From positions 96,001-160,000 of IMG/VR virus record IMGVR_UViG_3300020366_000001: a stretch of DNA of 64,000 nt. One strand, 5' to 3'. Shown piece by piece: positions 17,094-63,993 of the stretch (position 1 is its first letter; every line of letters begins with the position of its first letter). Made by a program: the position numbers and the translations under genes. This DNA is from a virus. Taxonomy: Duplodnaviria; Caudoviricetes. Below the pieces are notes generated by a model. The model saw only the letters and a list, made by a program, of their open reading frames with translations. It was not told the DNA's origin and did no database searches.

Positions 17094-17152
17094 AGTATGG
17101 CAGTGATGGGGGAGAAAGTCAACAGGCAGTGGACAGGCATCCCTTTGGCACA
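17094..17152 (-). promoter_or_regulatory. Early promoter element: dyad + TTGACT-17-CATACT
   Basis: GTGCCA-N10-TGTCCAC, 29 nt, CATACT. Confidence 0.75.
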
Positions 17153-17832
17153 CACCCTGTCAGGCGACGCCAGGTGAGGGCGAACTGAATGCTCTTCTCT
17201 GTCATCCCACCCTGGCGGCGATGACCTTTGACCTGCCACCCGTCTGGGGTATAGTAGAAGGTGATGGCGCACCTGCTCACGGTGTGACCGATGAAGTGCT
17301 CATCAGTATGGGCGAGGTGCCAGTCCTTCACGTCCGTCACGCAGTGGCGGCAGAACTTACCCGACCGAAGCAAGCGGACTAGGTTGGCAATCTCCTGGCG
17401 GGTCAAAATGAACCACTCGGTTCCACCCTTGCCGTTGTATAGGTGGCGGTACTCCTCAGGCAGATTCTCAGACCAGGGACCTGGCACGGTGCTGCACTTC
17501 TTACTGTTGCGCAGTCGCTCGTGGACGATCGCCTCGGTTGCCTTAACGCGATTGCTCAGCACTAGGGCAATGAATTCTGTATCACCGTCGTTGCTGGTCT
17601 GGTGTCCCTCTAGCATTGCCATCGTCGCTTTCTCACCACCAGAGGCAAGACCGATTTTCACCGCGACGTAATCTGACTCGTCAGCGGTGACGACGTTGGA
17701 ATGGGACACCATAAAGTAGAGGACGCCAGCACCACCCGCACCTGATCCAGAGGTGCGCTTATGGGCGGTTGCCTTGTCTACCGTGATGGTGGCAGAGTCG
17801 AAGACGGGACGATCAGCGTAGAGAGTCGTCAT
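17119..17832 (-). CDS. T5orf172/GIY-YIG-like domain protein
   Basis: LYFM...VKIGLA...EAIVHERL...GGTEWF pattern. Confidence 0.65.
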   Translation of the reverse strand: MTTLYADRPVFDSATITVDKATAHKRTSGSGAGGAGVLYFMVSHSNVVTADESDYVAVKIGLASGGEKATMAMLEGHQTSNDGDTEFIALVLSNRVKATEAIVHERLRNSKKCSTVPGPWSENLPEEYRHLYNGKGGTEWFILTRQEIANLVRLLRSGKFCRHCVTDVKDWHLAHTDEHFIGHTVSRCAITFYYTPDGWQVKGHRRQGGMTEKSIQFALTWRRLTGCVPKGCLSTAC

Positions 17833-19378: not shown

Positions 19379-19555
19379 TGGTTCACTTGCAAAGGTGTTG
19401 TATTGAATTATAATACTATCGATGTCTTTCTGTTCTAATTCTGTATACAATCTCTCCAGTTCTTTCATATAATTGTATTCATCGATTGTATCCATTAACT
19501 CTTGCATTCTATGGGATACAATCTGTTTTATTAAATCTCTTTTAGTAACTGTCAT
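19322..19555 (-). CDS. Hypothetical protein (77 aa)
   Basis: ORF track; coupled to the upstream ORF. Confidence 0.65.
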   Translation of the reverse strand: MTVTKRDLIKQIVSHRMQELMDTIDEYNYMKELERLYTELEQKDIDSIIIQYNTFASEPVTLSEVSTNPISINPDPV

Positions 19556-19725
19556 TCTATCTCTTCTATATCAACAACGGTTAACTCTTCATCGTCCCCT
19601 ATCTCCAACATATCTTTAAAATCCCAACTATGTGGATTCCAAGGGGTTTCAATCTCTAGCGTTATTTGATATTTTGTAATTTCCAAGTTTTGATTTAATG
19701 CAGGAATGTGAGAAAGCAAAGGCAT
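19552..19725 (-). CDS. Hypothetical protein (57 aa)
   Basis: Hand-translated MPLLSHIPALNQNLEITKYQITLEIETPWNPHSWDFKDMLEIGDDEELTVVDIEEIE; ATGA overlap with the next gene. Confidence 0.65.
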   Translation of the reverse strand: MPLLSHIPALNQNLEITKYQITLEIETPWNPHSWDFKDMLEIGDDEELTVVDIEEIE

Positions 19726-19762
19726 TGGAAAAAATCAAAAAACGCTAGAGTTAATTATAACA

Positions 19763-20086
19763 CTAAACGGTGATTTGTGCAGACCACCAGTCACCAGTAT
19801 ACTCAACTTCACCTTCGGGAGTGTTAATGAACCAATCGAACTTACGTTGGAACACGTTGTAACCACAGAACTCGAAAAGCAACACATTAAGAATTTGCTT
19901 AGTTGTTGCTGTCCAATAACCGCAGTTATTGATGCTGATGCTGTTGTTCGAGATTGCACCAATCAAGTGACCGTGAAAGGTGATAGATGCCGAACCATTA
20001 TCGTGCCACGTCACGCAACGGTTACCCTTAGAGAAGGGACGAAAGTTGCGGATGGCGGTGATCATTTCCTGGTCAACTTTGCGCAT
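19763..20086 (-). CDS. Conserved phage early protein (107 aa)
   Basis: MRKVDQEMITAI...FHGHLI...GYWTATTK..LN...VFQRKFDWF pattern. Confidence 0.8.
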   Translation of the reverse strand: MRKVDQEMITAIRNFRPFSKGNRCVTWHDNGSASITFHGHLIGAISNNSISINNCGYWTATTKQILNVLLFEFCGYNVFQRKFDWFINTPEGEVEYTGDWWSAQITV

Positions 20087-20131
20087 AATGAAGAGAGAGT
20101 GAGTGTGTACGTAAGGTGGACAGGTGAGAGA

Positions 20132-20299
20132 TCAGATCTTGAGTTCACCCATCATAGAACCTTCAAGGGTGCCACACAGGGCGCTGAGGTCGTTGTAGAG
20201 TTCGTCATCGGGACCGATACGATTGAGGATGCTGTCGAGAGCATCGATCGCACGCTGAGTCTCGGTGGCGGTCATCGAAGTTTGAATGATGGTGGGCAT
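20132..20299 (-). CDS. Small acidic hypothetical protein
   Basis: Hand-translated MPTIIQTSMTATETQRAIDALDSILNRIGPDDELYNDLSALCGTLEGSMMGELKI; alternative start at 20275. Confidence 0.65.
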   Translation of the reverse strand: MPTIIQTSMTATETQRAIDALDSILNRIGPDDELYNDLSALCGTLEGSMMGELKI

Positions 20300-20320
20300 T
20301 GGTTGCTTGCGAATGACTGT

Positions 20321-20378
20321 ATTATAGCGGAGTGGGAGACAGATGGGAGATGCCTAGGACACTTCGTCAACTGTCTAC
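20321..20378 (-). promoter_or_regulatory. Early promoter element (dyad + -10)
   Basis: GTAGACA-N10-TGTCCTA, 28 nt, TATAAT. Confidence 0.75.
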
Positions 20379-20420
20379 CACTCCTGTGATAGTTGTGTCG
20401 GGTCTCCCCTCCACTCACCT

Positions 20421-20479
20421 AATATACACGATCACGGAGGTCACACAACCTAGGGTGTGCCACTTTCCTCACCGACCAC
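20421..20479 (-). promoter_or_regulatory. Early promoter element (dyad + -10), tandem with the previous one
   Basis: GTGGTCG-N10-TGGCACA, 29 nt, TATATT. Confidence 0.65.
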
Positions 20480-20866
20480 GATGGCATCAGGGGGGAGTGT
20501 GCTACCTTGGAAAGCGTCCCATCCATCATCCAATTTATCAGGAGTCTGTGTAATCATATGGTCCAGGGTAAGGTTACCCATTTGGATACGTTCATTAATA
20601 AACTTACCAATGCTGAAATCCTCTCTGTCGATGGTGTCTTCCACATCCTCGACTAGATTGTCATTGTCATCTCTATCTTGCTCACCTTCAAGTAGACCAC
20701 AAAGTTGCATAAAAGCAGACTGAAATTCGTCTAAGTCTTTGCATTTATATGCATATTGTTTGTTTTTATTACTCTTATAGATGATTTTTACATTACTTAG
20801 ATCATAGTCTAACTCCAAGTAGTCAATAGCACCACTAGGGAGTTCTTCGTAAACCTTGTTAGTCAT
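20450..20866 (-). CDS. KTSC-like acidic protein (138 aa)
   Basis: SGAI..L..DY....V.I.YKSN...Y.Y...SIGKFIN. Confidence 0.6.
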   Translation of the reverse strand: MTNKVYEELPSGAIDYLELDYDLSNVKIIYKSNKNKQYAYKCKDLDEFQSAFMQLCGLLEGEQDRDDNDNLVEDVEDTIDREDFSIGKFINERIQMGNLTLDHMITQTPDKLDDGWDAFQGSTLPPDAIVVGEESGTP

Positions 20867-20940
20867 CTTAATGTCTTTCTATAGTATACAGTATAGCACG
20901 TGGGTGGGAAAATGAAAACCCTTAAAGGTTAAGAAAGTAA

Positions 20941-21007
20941 GTTTTTGACTTTTTTAACTTTTTCATTATTTCGGTTTTCTGACTTTCTTGACTTTTTCAG
21001 TTTCTTG
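20941..21007. repeat. Non-coding T-rich degenerate ~9-nt repeat tract (TTTTGACT-like)
   Basis: tttttgact ttttaact...ttctgact ttcttgact ttttcag; GACT/AACT at 20947, 20956, 20981, 20990. Confidence 0.7.
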
Positions 21008-21076
21008 TGTTAGACTGCAGGCTAAGACCCCCAGTTATCTCAGTATTGTAAGAGATATAGAACACATAAACTATAT

Positions 21077-21129
21077 TTTTCCACATATTTAATAAGTTTT
21101 CCACAGATATGTGGATAACCTGTGGAAAA
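21077..21129. promoter_or_regulatory. Cluster of four DnaA-box 9-mers (origin-like)
   Basis: TTTTCCACA at 21077 and 21097 (+); TTATCCACA at 21110-21118 and TTTTCCACA at 21121-21129 (-); intergenic. Confidence 0.7.
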
Positions 21130-21138
21130 GCATTGGTA

Positions 21139-21264
21139 TCACTGGGAGCGGAGGGTCCGCACATAGGTATTAAAACTGTCTGACATAGTGTAGTAACCAG
21201 ATGCTACTATTAGTTGACCACTAAAGACAATTGCTGTACATATACCCCAGAATATGTAATACAT
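21139..21264 (-). CDS. Small membrane protein (41 aa)
   Basis: MYYIFWGICTAIVFSGQLIVASGY...; start re-called. Confidence 0.6.
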   Translation of the reverse strand: MYYIFWGICTAIVFSGQLIVASGYYTMSDSFNTYVRTLRSQ

Positions 21265-21271
21265 TTGGGAC

Positions 21272-21436
21272 TTAACTTGGTGGTTCATACTTAGGTACTG
21301 GGTAGGAGATGATGATTCTTTGGGTGTTGTTACCTTGGGAGTCAAGCATAGACTGGCGATGGAGTGTTGCATCAGGGATAGCATTAAGGATATTGGATAG
21401 GGAGTTATTCAATACCATTTGTTGTTTAGGTGTCAT
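21272..21436 (-). CDS. Small hypothetical protein (54 aa)
   Basis: MTPKQQ...LDSQGNNTQRIIISY; coupled to the upstream stop. Confidence 0.6.
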   Translation of the reverse strand: MTPKQQMVLNNSLSNILNAIPDATLHRQSMLDSQGNNTQRIIISYPVPKYEPPS

Positions 21437-21576
21437 TGTAAGTGTGATAACCAAAGGGACCAAGTTATGTTTGTCTTCTTAATACCAAGCAATATGATTG
21501 ATGAAGCAAAAAGAAGAGATAGTAAGAATGGATACAATCCTTGTGGAAAACGTTCGTTTTTTGGTGGATCCAACAT
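21433..21576 (-). CDS. Small membrane protein (47 aa)
   Basis: Hand-translated MLDPPKNERFPQGLYPFLLSLLFASSIILLGIKKTNITWSLWLSHLQ. Confidence 0.55.
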   Translation of the reverse strand: MLDPPKNERFPQGLYPFLLSLLFASSIILLGIKKTNITWSLWLSHLQ

Positions 21577-21659
21577 AAAATAGTATGTGTTAACGGACAA
21601 GACTATGAACTGAAACCCATCACACTTTCGTTATACGTTTTGAATTGAGGTTACAAACA

Positions 21660-21821
21660 ATGCACAACTTAATGTCACACAATCAGTTGGAGGGATGGAG
21701 AGAATCTATCAAAGATGCAGTTGATAAGCAAGATGATTACTTTGACTGTTTAATCGAGTGTACGACAGAGGGGCGTCATACACGTGAATGCAGAAGAGTC
21801 TGTCGGGAAATGCTTATGTGA
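21660..21821 (+). CDS. Small Cys-rich conserved cyanophage/cyanobacterial protein (53 aa)
   Basis: GAGG RBS; MHNLMSHNQLEGW...DYFDCLIEC...ECRRVCREMLM; below the track cutoff. Confidence 0.75.
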   Translation: MHNLMSHNQLEGWRESIKDAVDKQDDYFDCLIECTTEGRHTRECRRVCREMLM

Positions 21822-21881
21822 TGTGACAATCGTAGTAGTGGTATACACCCCCTTGACCTAAGGTTGAGGGGGTTTTATGCT
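21822..21881 (+). promoter_or_regulatory. Plus-strand copy of the dyad element with internal hairpin and TTGACC-17-TATGCT
   Basis: TGTGACA-N10-TGGTATA; hairpin ACCCCCTTGACC-TAA-GGTTGAGGGGGT followed by TTT. Confidence 0.6.
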
Positions 21882-22061
21882 GTCTGGAGTCATTTTAATA
21901 GTTTGCGTGAGCGTTTCTTGTTGTTTCATATACAATTTAATGAAACTTTTAGCAAGGTCTCTTAGAATGACAACATCATCAATTGCGTCGATTTCTCTAC
22001 GTACCTTGTCATATTCAAAGTTTTTGCTCATCGTCGAGAGCAGTATGTCGTCGGGATTCAT
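21858..22061 (-). CDS. Small helical protein, possibly NblA-like
   Basis: 67 aa; LS...F......ID..D....LR......KLY.KQQE; two-helix pattern resembling NblA. Confidence 0.6.
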   Translation of the reverse strand: MNPDDILLSTMSKNFEYDKVRREIDAIDDVVILRDLAKSFIKLYMKQQETLTQTIKMTPDSIKPPQP

Positions 22062-22233
22062 AAGCTTTAGTTTCTAATTCATTAATGAGACTGTGCACAC
22101 CTTCGTGTGTGATAGGATGGGGTAGAGCTTGCAATGCGCAACGCAATACGGATGCTTGTAAATGTTCCAATCGATAATCTTCATCTGAAGACTCTAGTCC
22201 AAAATAGAATTGAAATCGATCGAGTGAAGACAT
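22015..22233 (-). CDS. Hypothetical protein (72 aa)
   Basis: ORF track; divergent from 22263. Confidence 0.55.
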   Translation of the reverse strand: MSSLDRFQFYFGLESSDEDYRLEHLQASVLRCALQALPHPITHEGVHSLINELETKAYESRRHTALDDEQKL

Positions 22234-22262
22234 TACTAATTACCTAAAACACATTACTAATT

Positions 22263-22451
22263 ATGGCGTGTAAAAATTGCGGTGGCAATATGTCACTGGA
22301 TGAACTAGAAAACCAAATGTTTGCTCATCTCTGGACAAAGACTGATGATGGGTGGACAGTTAAGTGTGAAGATGGTACACTAGTTACATTCGCTTCAGTT
22401 AGTGAAGCAAAAGAATTTATACTAAGTGGTGAGCACCGCGACAATGGATAG
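22263..22451 (+). CDS. Hypothetical protein with N-terminal CxxC (62 aa)
   Basis: MACKNCGG...; coupled to the downstream oxygenase. Confidence 0.65.
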   Translation: MACKNCGGNMSLDELENQMFAHLWTKTDDGWTVKCEDGTLVTFASVSEAKEFILSGEHRDNG

Positions 22452-23130
22452 ACAAGGAAAGAAAGTCATCAAACACACTGTTGAGTGTGACACAATGATT
22501 AGAGAGTATCCTAATCACGTACCACCTGAGTTCTGTGATATGTTGATTAAGTATACTGAAGATCTATACAATGGACACATCAATAATGAACCAACAGGGA
22601 CAAATACAGAGGCGTCAAAGTTTGAACGTTCAGATTACTTTTATTGGTTGACTGAAGGTACATCACCTAGTGTACGTAATACACTATTGAGTGGATGGGG
22701 TAAGTTGGCGCAACGTCAATACCTTGAAGAGTTTAGTCAATTAGCATTGAATGATTTCTGGATGAGTGCTGCTAAAGTGCATCGTACTGAACCAGGACAA
22801 GCATTTCATAGTTGGCATTACGATAATGCTGGTTTCTTTGTTGCTGATCGTGAGTTTGTCTTTATCACCTATCTAAATGATGATTTTGAAGGTGGTGAGA
22901 CTGAATTCTTGTATCAAGGTGTTAGAGTGAAACCTGAAAAGGGAAAGACTGTTATCTTCCCCGCAGGTTATACTCATATGCACCGTGGTAATCCTCCCAT
23001 CAAAGGTAACAAATACATTGCAACAACGTGGGCATCAAAATTACCAAGAATGGATCGTGAAACTGGTGACGCTGGTGAAATGAAGTTCATTGGTCCTAGT
23101 GAACAAATGATCAGTTACTATAAAGGTTGA
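22444..23130 (+). CDS. 2OG-Fe(II) oxygenase (prolyl-4-hydroxylase-like)
   Basis: WHYD...YLND.FEGGETEF...FPA.YTH.HRG..P..G.KY. Confidence 0.9.
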   Translation: MDRQGKKVIKHTVECDTMIREYPNHVPPEFCDMLIKYTEDLYNGHINNEPTGTNTEASKFERSDYFYWLTEGTSPSVRNTLLSGWGKLAQRQYLEEFSQLALNDFWMSAAKVHRTEPGQAFHSWHYDNAGFFVADREFVFITYLNDDFEGGETEFLYQGVRVKPEKGKTVIFPAGYTHMHRGNPPIKGNKYIATTWASKLPRMDRETGDAGEMKFIGPSEQMISYYKG

Positions 23131-55310: not shown

Positions 55311-58300
55311 CAGAGTTCAATTAAACGCCAACCCATTGCCGAGTTAATAAACACAAGTCCTAATCCTGCGCCAGGAGTTTGAATAACCATCTTACCTTCA
55401 TCGTCACCTTGAATAGGAACGATATCAGCAGCACTTTGATTAGTTTGAATTAGAACCGCTTTATTATATGTCAAGGTATCTGTAGTATCTATAATTCTAA
55501 TCTGATCTCCTTTTTGAGCAGATGGTAAAGTTAACGCAAGTTGCGCACCACTGAATGAAGTCACATAATAATTAGTGTTCGCAGCCAAAGTAGTTGCAGT
55601 ACTCACTTCTTCCCACTTAGCGCCACCAGTTGCGGTAAAGTATCCAGTAATAGGTCCAACATCAATAGATCCAGCACTATTAACCTTAAATCTGTTAGTG
55701 CCACCATCATTAACATCTAAGGTACCGCCTTCAAATTCGGCGTTACCATCCATCACAATGTTACCAGTGCCGTAGATGTTACCACTAATACCAGCACCAC
55801 CATCAACAATCAAAGCACCAGTAGTAGCGCTAGAAGCATTAGTAGTACTGTGAACTCTCAGAGTGCCAGTATTGTCAGTATTATTACCAACAACAGTATT
55901 GCCATTAGAAGAATCAATGCTGAAGACGGTATCATCATTGATGTGAGTCTTCTTAACGCTAAAGTTATTGCCAAGTGTAGTTTCTCCATCAGATGCAATT
56001 CTGATGCGAGGATTAGTATCACTACCATCTAAGATGAAGGAAGTTTCACCAGTACCAATGATCTTGATTCTCTCAGTAGTCTGATTAGTAATTCTAAATT
56101 GTTGAGACGCAGAAATCTCAACTCTAGTAGATCCATTAACAGAGAGGGCATATCCAGTTTCAGGAGTTGCCAGACCAATAGAAGTATTACCGCTAGCATC
56201 TTGCTGTAAACCGCCACTAGAGTTACCAAGACGGAAAGATCCATCAGATTTAACAACTAACTTTGCGGTAGAAGTATCTGAGAAGTGATCATTAGAGTAG
56301 TTTGCATCACCAACAACAAAGTTTTGACCTTGATAGGTAACATAGTTGGCTGATGCAGCATCATCATTCTGACTAATGTCAGCACGAAGGTTGCCAGAAC
56401 CAGTACCATCATCTTTCTGGAACATCTTAATGTTACCACCACGGACGTACAGATCCTTAGTAACAGTTAAATCACCAACCAGTTCGTGAGAACCATTGCT
56501 CAAAGCAGTCAGAGTGCCGTCAATAGTCAGGTCACCGCTAGATTGACCACCACCAACAGATTCAACAGGAGCACTACCAATAGTACCGCCTCTAACAACA
56601 ACGTCGCCACCAACCCAAAGACCATTAGTGTTCTGAACTGCAGTGACATCACCTGTGTTGATAGAAACTCTACCCAGACCATCACCATCATCGTCATAAA
56701 CACGGAATGTGTGCTGACCAGCAGGGTTAGTATTGTCACCACCAACCCACAGAGACTTATGGAAAATACCAGAACCCTCAACGTCCAGAGTCTGCTGAGG
56801 AATTACACTAGCGTTAGTAGTACGGGTATTCTTCAGGTTAATACCCAGACGCATATCAGATCCACCAGTAGAGTTGGAAGATCCAGTACCAGTAGTGTAG
56901 GTGGTCAGTGCATCAGCACCAATTACACCCCATTCTCTCCATCCATAATCTGGAGTTTCACCTGATTGGAATCCACCAATCTGACACCAGATCCAACCAA
57001 CAGCAGTGTTGTAGTTGATGCTAGAAATTCTATGTGCTTCACCAACAGTCTCAGTACCACGCAGAGTAATAGTACCCTCACGCTTAAATGTTTCACTACT
57101 AGGAACATTCTTGCCCTTAGTAGACTTAATCTCATAAGTAAGACCACTAGTGCTTCTAGGATTAACCTCCCAAACAGCAAACTGAATAGTGTTTGGTTTC
57201 AGCGGGGGGTGAATATTGATATCAGTGTCAACTAGACCCGAATCAACGCTAGAACTAGTAACGTTACCAACTGACTTGATTGTAATAGATGCGGGATCAT
57301 TCAGATCATTTGAATATTCATCATCCACCTCAACCGTAATAGGGGTGGAGAAGAATGTACCGTCAGGAGCAGAAACTTCAAAACTGGTATTCAGATCAAA
57401 TTTGACTTTGTTCTGTACAGTCAGAGTATCGATTGTGAGGTCAGTGGTATTTTCCTCTTCATCAACGTTCTCACCAGCAACACGCAGGATAGAATCATCG
57501 ATCTTAGTCTCTTCACCAGAGATAGCGTTGATACGCTGGTTACCCACGAACAGGTCACCGTTAGCGTTCAGACCAGAGTAGAAGACCACACCGCCGTCTT
57601 GACGCTTCGCCTGAGAGAACAGGACTTCATCGTCAGAGAGCACATACTCCTGTCTAGAGGGGAATGCGGTGGAGTAGTTACCAGGACCGAAACCAGTGTA
57701 TTCAAAGGTGTGGTTACCAGATCGTGCCTGAGAAGGACGACGAAGTTCCACATAAAGTCTGCGGTCAGCAACAGCATTACTGCTACCTTCAACGCCAATC
57801 AAACGATCTTCACGTGAAGCAACTGCCTTACCATCCATTGCTGCCAGAGTAACAGTAGAATCTCTGCCAACATTTGACATAAGATTTTCAACTGCTTCTC
57901 TAGTAACGCTATTCTTATTGTCATTGGTCTCCACAAGACCGTGGACATAGTTGTCAGCAACAGAGATAGTTGCAGGAGCATCTAGAATTGTACTGCCATC
58001 TCCATCAGGGTCAAACCACAGAGGATCATCAGCAAACAGTTCAGGATACAGTTTTTCAGTTGGGTGACCAAACTTAAAGGTGTTGAATTCAGTAACCGAT
58101 GGAGAGAAGTCACCACGCAAGCAAGTCAGATAGTAGATACCATCCTGCTGGTTATAGATTCTACGACGCAAAGTCTTAGATCTATACACATAATAGGTAT
58201 TATCAATCTCCTCAACATCCTCAACACTAACAATCTTATAGTCTTTCTGGTTGCCATCTGCCTCATCACGGACAAAATCACCAGGAGTTAGGGTGTAGAC

Positions 58301-63908: not shown

Positions 63909-63993
63909 TAGGAGTGGGGGGACTTGAACCCCCACGACCTTAACGGTCAACAGATTTTAAGTCTGGTGTGTCTACCGATTCCACCACACTCCC
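63909..63993 (-). tRNA. trnL-UAA: tRNA-Leu (UAA)
   Basis: GGGAGTG/CACTCCT acceptor stem, D-loop GGAATCGGTAGAC, anticodon arm CAGA-CTTAAAA-TCTG, long variable arm, GGTTCAAGTCC T-loop; no encoded CCA. Confidence 0.95.

Follow-up and report, generated by a model that had tools for sequence, protein, structure and literature searches.

Source phage and gene neighbourhood

The window, the whole stretch of 64,000 nt that was analysed, is part of a phage genome of 187,435 bp in full. The major capsid protein of the phage matches Gp23 (E 5e-144), with at most 69% identity to cultured isolates, and photosystem II reaction-centre genes (Pfam Photo_RC, psbA/psbD family) are present, one of which has its top matches in Cyanobium and marine Synechococcus. 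Judged by these genes, the source phage is a divergent T4-like cyanomyovirus, in agreement with the preliminary description of this DNA, which had called it T4-like.

The region of interest is a non-coding gap of 272 bp (20867-21138) flanked by two minus-strand genes, whose matches are limited to families of unknown function. It had been singled out as the longest non-coding gap of the early region; it is indeed the longest in its neighbourhood and, on a crude ORF map, the fourth longest genome-wide. The features of the gap and its borders are the following:

20450-20866, minus strand: gene for a 138-aa acidic protein of phrog_4357, function unknown; first gene after the module
20890-20918, minus strand: promoter-like element P_R, TTTTCA-17-TATACT (consensus scan), serving the downstream gene
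20941-21008, plus strand: T-rich repeat tract, four 24-nt units with three TTGACT/CTGACT copies
20988-21016, plus strand: promoter-like element P_L, TTGACT (20988-20993)-17-TAGACT (21011-21016), with TG before the -10 (consensus scan)
21011-21029, minus strand: block C, GGTCTTAGCCTGCAGTCTA; consensus GTCTTAGCACGC..CCTA with invariant columns; single copy in the genome
21035-21095, no strand: AT-rich least stable segment, candidate unwinding element (nearest-neighbour stability)
21057-21067, minus strand: block B, ATGTGTTCTAT; family consensus GTGTGTTYTAT (alignments); single copy in the genome
21077-21129, both strands: DnaA-box array, four perfect 9-mers (exact TTWTCCACA matches)
21077-21085, plus strand: box 1, TTTTCCACA (exact match)
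21097-21105, plus strand: box 2, TTTTCCACA (exact match)
21110-21118, minus strand: box 3, TTATCCACA (exact match)
21121-21129, minus strand: box 4, TTTTCCACA (exact match)
21139-21384, minus strand: gene for a small protein of phrog_2000, 'T4-LIKE GC 158' family; gene before the module

The stop codon of the phrog_2000 gene lies 10 nt from the outermost DnaA box. This gene was considered as a synteny anchor and rejected, since it occupies many different locations in other phages. About 500 bp from the module, the minus-strand early region is broken by a plus-strand gene island (21385-23130), inside which lies a 2OG-Fe(II) oxygenase gene (22426-23130). The divergent region 21385-21644 contains a fifth DnaA box (21542, minus strand), which is not conserved in relatives. 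For a 237-aa early-region protein (17119-17832, minus strand) the T5orf172 domain was matched right at the Pfam cut-off (E 9e-4), a borderline result, and a tRNA-Leu gene (anticodon TAA; 63909-63993, minus strand) is located at the end of the window. When 19500-23000 was scanned against Rfam, the gap gave no hit, and those elsewhere were sub-threshold and due to chance.

A tight cluster of perfect DnaA boxes

The four 9-mers occupy 53 bp exactly as first described, two forward boxes facing two reverse ones, with start-to-start spacings of 20, 13 and 11 bp. Their identification as DnaA boxes is also borne out, the TTWTCCACA 9-mers being the experimentally supported cyanobacterial DnaA-box consensus (PMC4674748). 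The sole substitution among the window boxes, T to A at position 3, is permitted by the general consensus TTWTNCACA.

TTWTCCACA has seven matches in the window against 1.79 expected, a number reached in none of 100 shuffles. Genome-wide there are 10 copies, of which four fall within these 53 bp (approximate scan probability ~2e-8), and no comparable second cluster was found anywhere in the genome, even with one mismatch permitted. The genome-wide count and shuffle comparison proposed in the preliminary description thus place the clustering far beyond chance. The DNA-binding domain IV of DnaA (PF08299) was not found in the phage at E values up to 1; dnaA is present in the host lineage. We infer that the four 9-mers are docking sites for host DnaA and form the outer element of a control module.

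Tandem DnaA boxes 2-3 bp apart were also observed in a diverse set of at least 119 viral contigs (loci L021-L100), and host-initiator sites may be widespread in phage genomes beyond cyanophages.

Conservation and layout of the module in related phages

A search with the 138-aa protein yielded 12 uncultured viral loci (63-78% protein identity), and its homologues served as anchors of these 12 syntenic loci. In all 12, two to four exact boxes lie upstream of the 138-aa gene, at a distance of about 250-300 bp. Alignment of these relatives shows no variation in the box columns, in contrast to the spacers, the box number and the box orientation, all of which differ. With the window's own gap (as DNA) and the 138-aa gene (as protein) as queries, no match was found in cultured phages; the link to these was obtained through whole-record motif scans and the module of Syn19. 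One tight box cluster is present in eight of 11 cultured cyanomyoviruses (Syn19, S-SSM5, P-TIM68, P-SSM7, S-ShM2, Syn9, S-PM2 and S-CAM1), and none was detected by the same whole-record scans in the three Prochlorococcus phages P-SSM2, P-SSM4 and P-HM2. The syntenic conservation that had been put forward as a check therefore extends to all of the uncultured relatives and to most of the cultured cyanomyoviruses, and fails in three of the latter. No cluster is present in any of five T4-like phages of other hosts (T4, RB43, KVP40, Aeh1 and the SAR11 phage HTVC008M), whose box counts do not exceed those of a reversed-motif control.

The Syn19 module, used as a query, found 207 places in 205 cultured cyanophage records; together with its one copy in the source genome, this makes the module a single-copy element. 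The equivalent fragment is at about 19.2 kb in S-PM2 and at 52.55-52.76 kb in Syn9. In the direction of the genes it is ordered as boxes, block B, about 30 nt of variable sequence, block C, GTCAAC, an early promoter (canonical CTTGACA-17-TATAAT in the module family) and the next gene. Read along the plus strand of the window, the order is T-rich tract, P_L, blocks C and B within about 50 nt of AT-rich DNA, and boxes. Block B is about 20 nt from the nearest box in the window, and the distance from the array to block B is constant across modules, at -20/-21 or -29/-30. The reverse complement of block C corresponds, in most clades, to the TGn-TAAGnn -10-like element of a backward-facing promoter. 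Coding potential over block C was considered and rejected: the ORFs annotated there use different frames in different cultured phages and the window has a stop at this place, so block C is taken to be non-coding.

In one uncultured locus (L244, IMGVR_UViG_3300007539_000207) three direct repeats of about 33 nt take the place of the boxes, and block B (TTGTGTTTTATG...) is contained in each, which suggests that block B may itself be a protein-binding iteron. The window itself showed no iterons other than the T-rich repeats.

A sample independent of the boxes was obtained by scanning viral contigs with blocks B and C alone, which gave about 26 true modules. At least one exact box lies within 160 bp in 22 of them and at least two in 20, against a background density of 0.066 exact boxes per kb in the same loci. 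The remaining four have degenerate box remnants and no exact box. Given its conservation in the uncultured relatives and in most of the cultured cyanomyoviruses, and its absence from T4-like phages of other hosts, we regard the box array as being under selection. The absence of a cluster in three of 11 cultured cyanomyoviruses and of exact boxes in four of about 26 modules indicates, at the same time, that the boxes are a frequent and strongly enriched, but accessory, part of the module and not its indispensable core; from P-SSM2, P-SSM4, P-HM2 and the four boxless modules it follows that DnaA would not be essential to the core function.

The 33 module sequences compared contain 92 sites with at most one mismatch, of which 61 are exact TTTTCCACA. 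The variant sites are mostly altered at positions 1-3, TTATCCACA being among the tolerated variants, and both orientations are used. A start-to-start spacing of 11-13 bp, approximately one helical turn, recurs in S-PM2 and in two uncultured clades, one of them that of the window. The use of both orientations and the helical spacing fit a protein that binds double-stranded DNA and oligomerises.

The sites could nevertheless belong to another phage or host protein, or to a hairpin or cruciform, the resemblance to DnaA boxes being coincidental. The convergent boxes of the window can fold into a strong nested hairpin (about -13 kcal/mol, z -5.4), the adjoining blocks B and C are invariant and have no assigned binding protein, and a divergent phage DNA-binding protein could escape a Pfam search. 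Three relatives (L009-L011), however, have three boxes in the same orientation, which form no hairpin (z +0.93). The hairpin or cruciform was consequently rejected as a conserved feature, and it is the 9-mer, not the dyad, that is conserved. The predominance of the exact 9-mer among the array sites, with TTATCCACA as a tolerated variant, and the confinement of the cluster to cyanobacterial phages among those compared likewise argue against a coincidence, which we consider quite improbable.

Additional or displaced boxes were noticed in three cultured phages. P-SSM7 (L150:3103-3132) and S-ShM2 (L149:2569-2593) have a second tandem TTTTCCACA pair, with boxes 16-21 bp apart, about 250-630 bp beyond the main module and immediately in front of the start codon of a further small early gene; these extra pairs look more like gene regulation. 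In P-TIM68 the non-coding region is unusually long, at about 645 bp (L282:52-696, corresponding to 57651-58295), and has diverged blocks B and C; its convergent box pair, with a 5-nt spacer, is shifted in position to just before a TTGACA promoter-like site.

Comparison with the host origin and with Synechococcus genomes

The array had been described as host-type and oriC-like. Like cyanobacterial oriC (PMC4674748, PMC8287927), it consists of TTTTCCACA in both orientations, spaced by approximately one helical turn and adjacent to AT-rich DNA; unlike the cyanobacterial oriC next to dnaN, it has neither DnaA-trios nor dnaN/dnaA synteny. A script applying the criteria of PMC8287927 (three or more repeats, the central base being A on the bound strand, no further than 16 bp 3' of the box) found no DnaA-trios for any of the four boxes. 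The boxes nearest to the AT-rich segment point away from it, and those pointing towards it are separated from it by other boxes. In bacterial origins, according to our reading of PMC8287927, the order runs from the box to the unwinding element, opposite to that of the nearest boxes of the module.

Three complete marine Synechococcus genomes (2.2-3.3 Mb) contain exact TTTTCCACA 8-23 times, which is not above control, and no stretch of 150 bp in them has more than two perfect boxes. The boxes upstream of dnaN have one mismatch each in all three. The lack of DnaA-trios and of a comparable array at dnaN in these three genomes means that the phage array is not a copy of the host oriC, and in this respect the earlier description does not hold. 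The phage array is denser in perfect sites than any place in the three Synechococcus genomes. Close pairs of perfect boxes in these genomes were observed only in intergenic regions far from dnaN and dnaA (L237:2044-2073, L238:2011-2052, L239:2002-2054); one adjoins a CbiX gene and another a DUF1818 gene, and one pair is convergent like the phage arrays. These pairs have the same flanking base as the phage boxes, giving TTTTCCACAG.

This density of sites has a bearing on the suggestion that the array is a sink comparable to datA, which would soak up or inactivate host DnaA and thereby stall host initiation or change the expression of DnaA-regulated genes. More perfect boxes are gathered in the array than anywhere in the three host-lineage genomes, with their 8-23 boxes in 2.2-3.3 Mb, and replicating phage DNA would soon outnumber the host sites. 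Like E. coli datA, the array is a cluster of high-affinity DnaA boxes outside the chromosomal origin. E. coli datA is about 1 kb long and requires an IHF site. Its size sets it apart from the module, in which the boxes lie within 53 bp and at a fixed place in a promoter module. Moreover, a sink of two to four sites per genome would be small, and its position would not have to be fixed, whereas the array keeps a constant distance to block B (-20/-21, -29/-30). Three cultured cyanomyoviruses, besides, manage without the array. We therefore regard a sink as very improbable.

Promoter-like elements and meltable DNA

P_L, a sigma-70-like element of the extended -10 type, is on the strand opposite to the genes. 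Transcription from its predicted start near 21023 would read through the AT-rich segment into the boxes, which lie 53-105 nt downstream of that start. An equivalent element, TTGAC[AT]-17-TA[AG][AG]NN, whose TTGAC(A/T) corresponds to the reverse complement of GTCAAC, is found in 31 of the 33 modules, usually preceded by TG and with a spacer of 17 nt throughout (18 in one case), and the boxes begin 43-88 nt past its -10 across modules. The -10 in most clades is TAAGAC and lacks the usual T at the final position, which counts against the reading of P_L as a promoter. At the site of P_R, the relatives have TTGACA-17-TATACT or TATAAT.

The T-rich repeat tract reported about 70 bp from the array is real: it comprises four copies of a 24-nt unit, has T-runs every 8-9 bp and ends 69 bp before the first box. 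Its equivalent in relatives, in the form of A-rich repeats, is conserved in the window's clade only. The tract is not the least stable DNA, which is at 21035-21095; it is probably better read as a spacer, and shared upstream region, of the divergent P_L and P_R than as the unwinding element. The segment 21035-21095 has P_L on one side and, on the other, reaches into the first box. Its 40-mer 21055-21095, which contains block B, is the fourth least stable site of the genome (fraction 5e-5) and the least stable among the 42 non-coding gaps. The equivalent segment of Syn9 ranks in the top 0.5% of instability of the Syn9 genome.

The leader that P_L would produce, from about 21023 to the boxes, has no Rfam match, and RNAalifold gave no consensus RNA structure over 30 modules. 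With no conserved structure, this leader offers no competing interpretation as a functional RNA.

The position of the boxes downstream of a conserved promoter-like element raises the possibility of transcription control and nothing else, the DnaA array acting as an operator or roadblock for P_L or for early genes and taking no part in initiation. The P_L transcript would then be antisense to the upstream gene and the array would be a sensor of the replication state of the host. Several observations are in keeping with this: the extra tandem boxes of P-SSM7 and S-ShM2 stand immediately before the start codon of another early gene, the boxes are dispensable in some lineages, as expected of a modulatory input, and the isolated perfect pairs of Synechococcus, far from dnaN and dnaA, suggest a regulatory use of DnaA in the host. 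The boxes are, however, 160-240 bp away from P_R, too great a distance for them to control the downstream gene in a simple way, and transcription control leaves unexplained both the single copy of the module and its coincidence with the least stable intergenic DNA. We consider it unlikely that transcription control, in either of these forms, is the whole function of the array.

Comparison with the origins of T4 and lambda

Replication of T4 is initiated from R-loops and by recombination, and DnaA is not mentioned in a review of T4 replication (PMC3016281); the statement in the preliminary description that T4-like phages normally initiate without DnaA agrees with this review. At T4 oriF and oriG, a promoter is followed by a downstream unwinding element and the transcript forms the priming R-loop (PMC3016281). 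Similarly to oriF (uvsY) and oriG, the module is a non-coding unit of about 100 bp in the early region, in which a promoter-like element precedes an A+T-rich segment (PMC3016281). The segment 21035-21095 lies directly downstream of P_L, and it is this segment that is the least stable of the 42 gaps. The combination of an early-type promoter and short repeats is also reminiscent of T4 oriE (PMC3016281). Unlike the module, however, the T4 origins have no DnaA boxes and DnaA takes no part in their initiation. The promoters of T4 oriF and oriG are middle promoters that depend on MotA; that of the module is a promoter-like element of sigma-70-like type. Finally, T4 has several origins and the module is present in a single copy, with an R-loop that we only infer.

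A precedent for the boxes is provided by phage lambda, in which a DnaA footprint is located downstream of pO and the transcriptional activation of ori-lambda depends on DnaA (PMC3985674). As at lambda pO/pR, DnaA-box sites are found in the module downstream of a small backward-facing promoter-like element, in a control region of the lytic cycle (PMC3985674); the window boxes all follow the predicted P_L start. The lambda initiator O, however, binds iterons, and neither such a gene nor such iterons were found in the window. The DnaA sites of lambda are few and imperfect, whereas the module has up to four perfect, helically phased boxes. P1 and several plasmids also use host DnaA boxes.

The layout of the module thus resembles a T4 R-loop origin to which an input from host DnaA would have been added, as at lambda pO/pR.

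Discussion

The data presented above make the module the best candidate for the place where these phages start replication or control its timing. Our preferred interpretation, held tentatively and at somewhat less than even confidence, is that the module serves as an origin coupled to transcription or as an early control element, with DnaA as an accessory modulator. Transcription from P_L would open the AT-rich segment, or the transcript would hybridise to it, as at T4 oriF/oriG. DnaA bound at the distal edge could modulate this opening by stalling RNA polymerase, by stabilising the open DNA, or both. This would couple the early replication of the phage to the host initiator and its state, comparably to the action of host DnaA on lambda pO/pR beside ori-lambda. 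The array might also set the 3' end of the P_L transcript inside the meltable block, DnaA acting as a roadblock. According to Schaefer and Messer, the complex of DnaA with a DnaA box can reportedly block a transcribing RNA polymerase.

A more specific version of this interpretation, which we find rather doubtful, is that the module is the single early-replication origin, composed of a host-type backward promoter, an AT-rich block and phased DnaA boxes, and that it gates the first round of replication. If this were true, the gating would depend on the amount or nucleotide state of host DnaA, and hence on the readiness of the host to replicate, which varies with light and the cell cycle. Cumulative GC skew is uninformative on the presence of an origin, because in both the source genome and Syn9 it is monotonic and follows the gene strand, with no extremum at the module.

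T4-like cyanophages are among the most abundant viruses of the ocean and, to our knowledge, their replication origins have never been mapped. A single theta origin was once predicted for Syn9, according to a review (PMC2984593). Our literature search found no paper linking DnaA boxes with cyanophages. Lambda is a known case of a phage that uses host DnaA boxes; their use by a T4-like phage would be new. The host initiator has no role in the T4 paradigm; if our interpretation is true, the module described here would connect DnaA with a T4-like phage for the first time.

The module offers a precise place to look for the replication origin of T4-like cyanophages and, if the proposed role of DnaA is true, a mechanism by which a phage could sense the competence of its host to replicate. 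Even if the array turns out to be only regulatory, or only a sink, a lytic phage keeps perfect host-initiator sites at a density greater than that found in three genomes of the host lineage.
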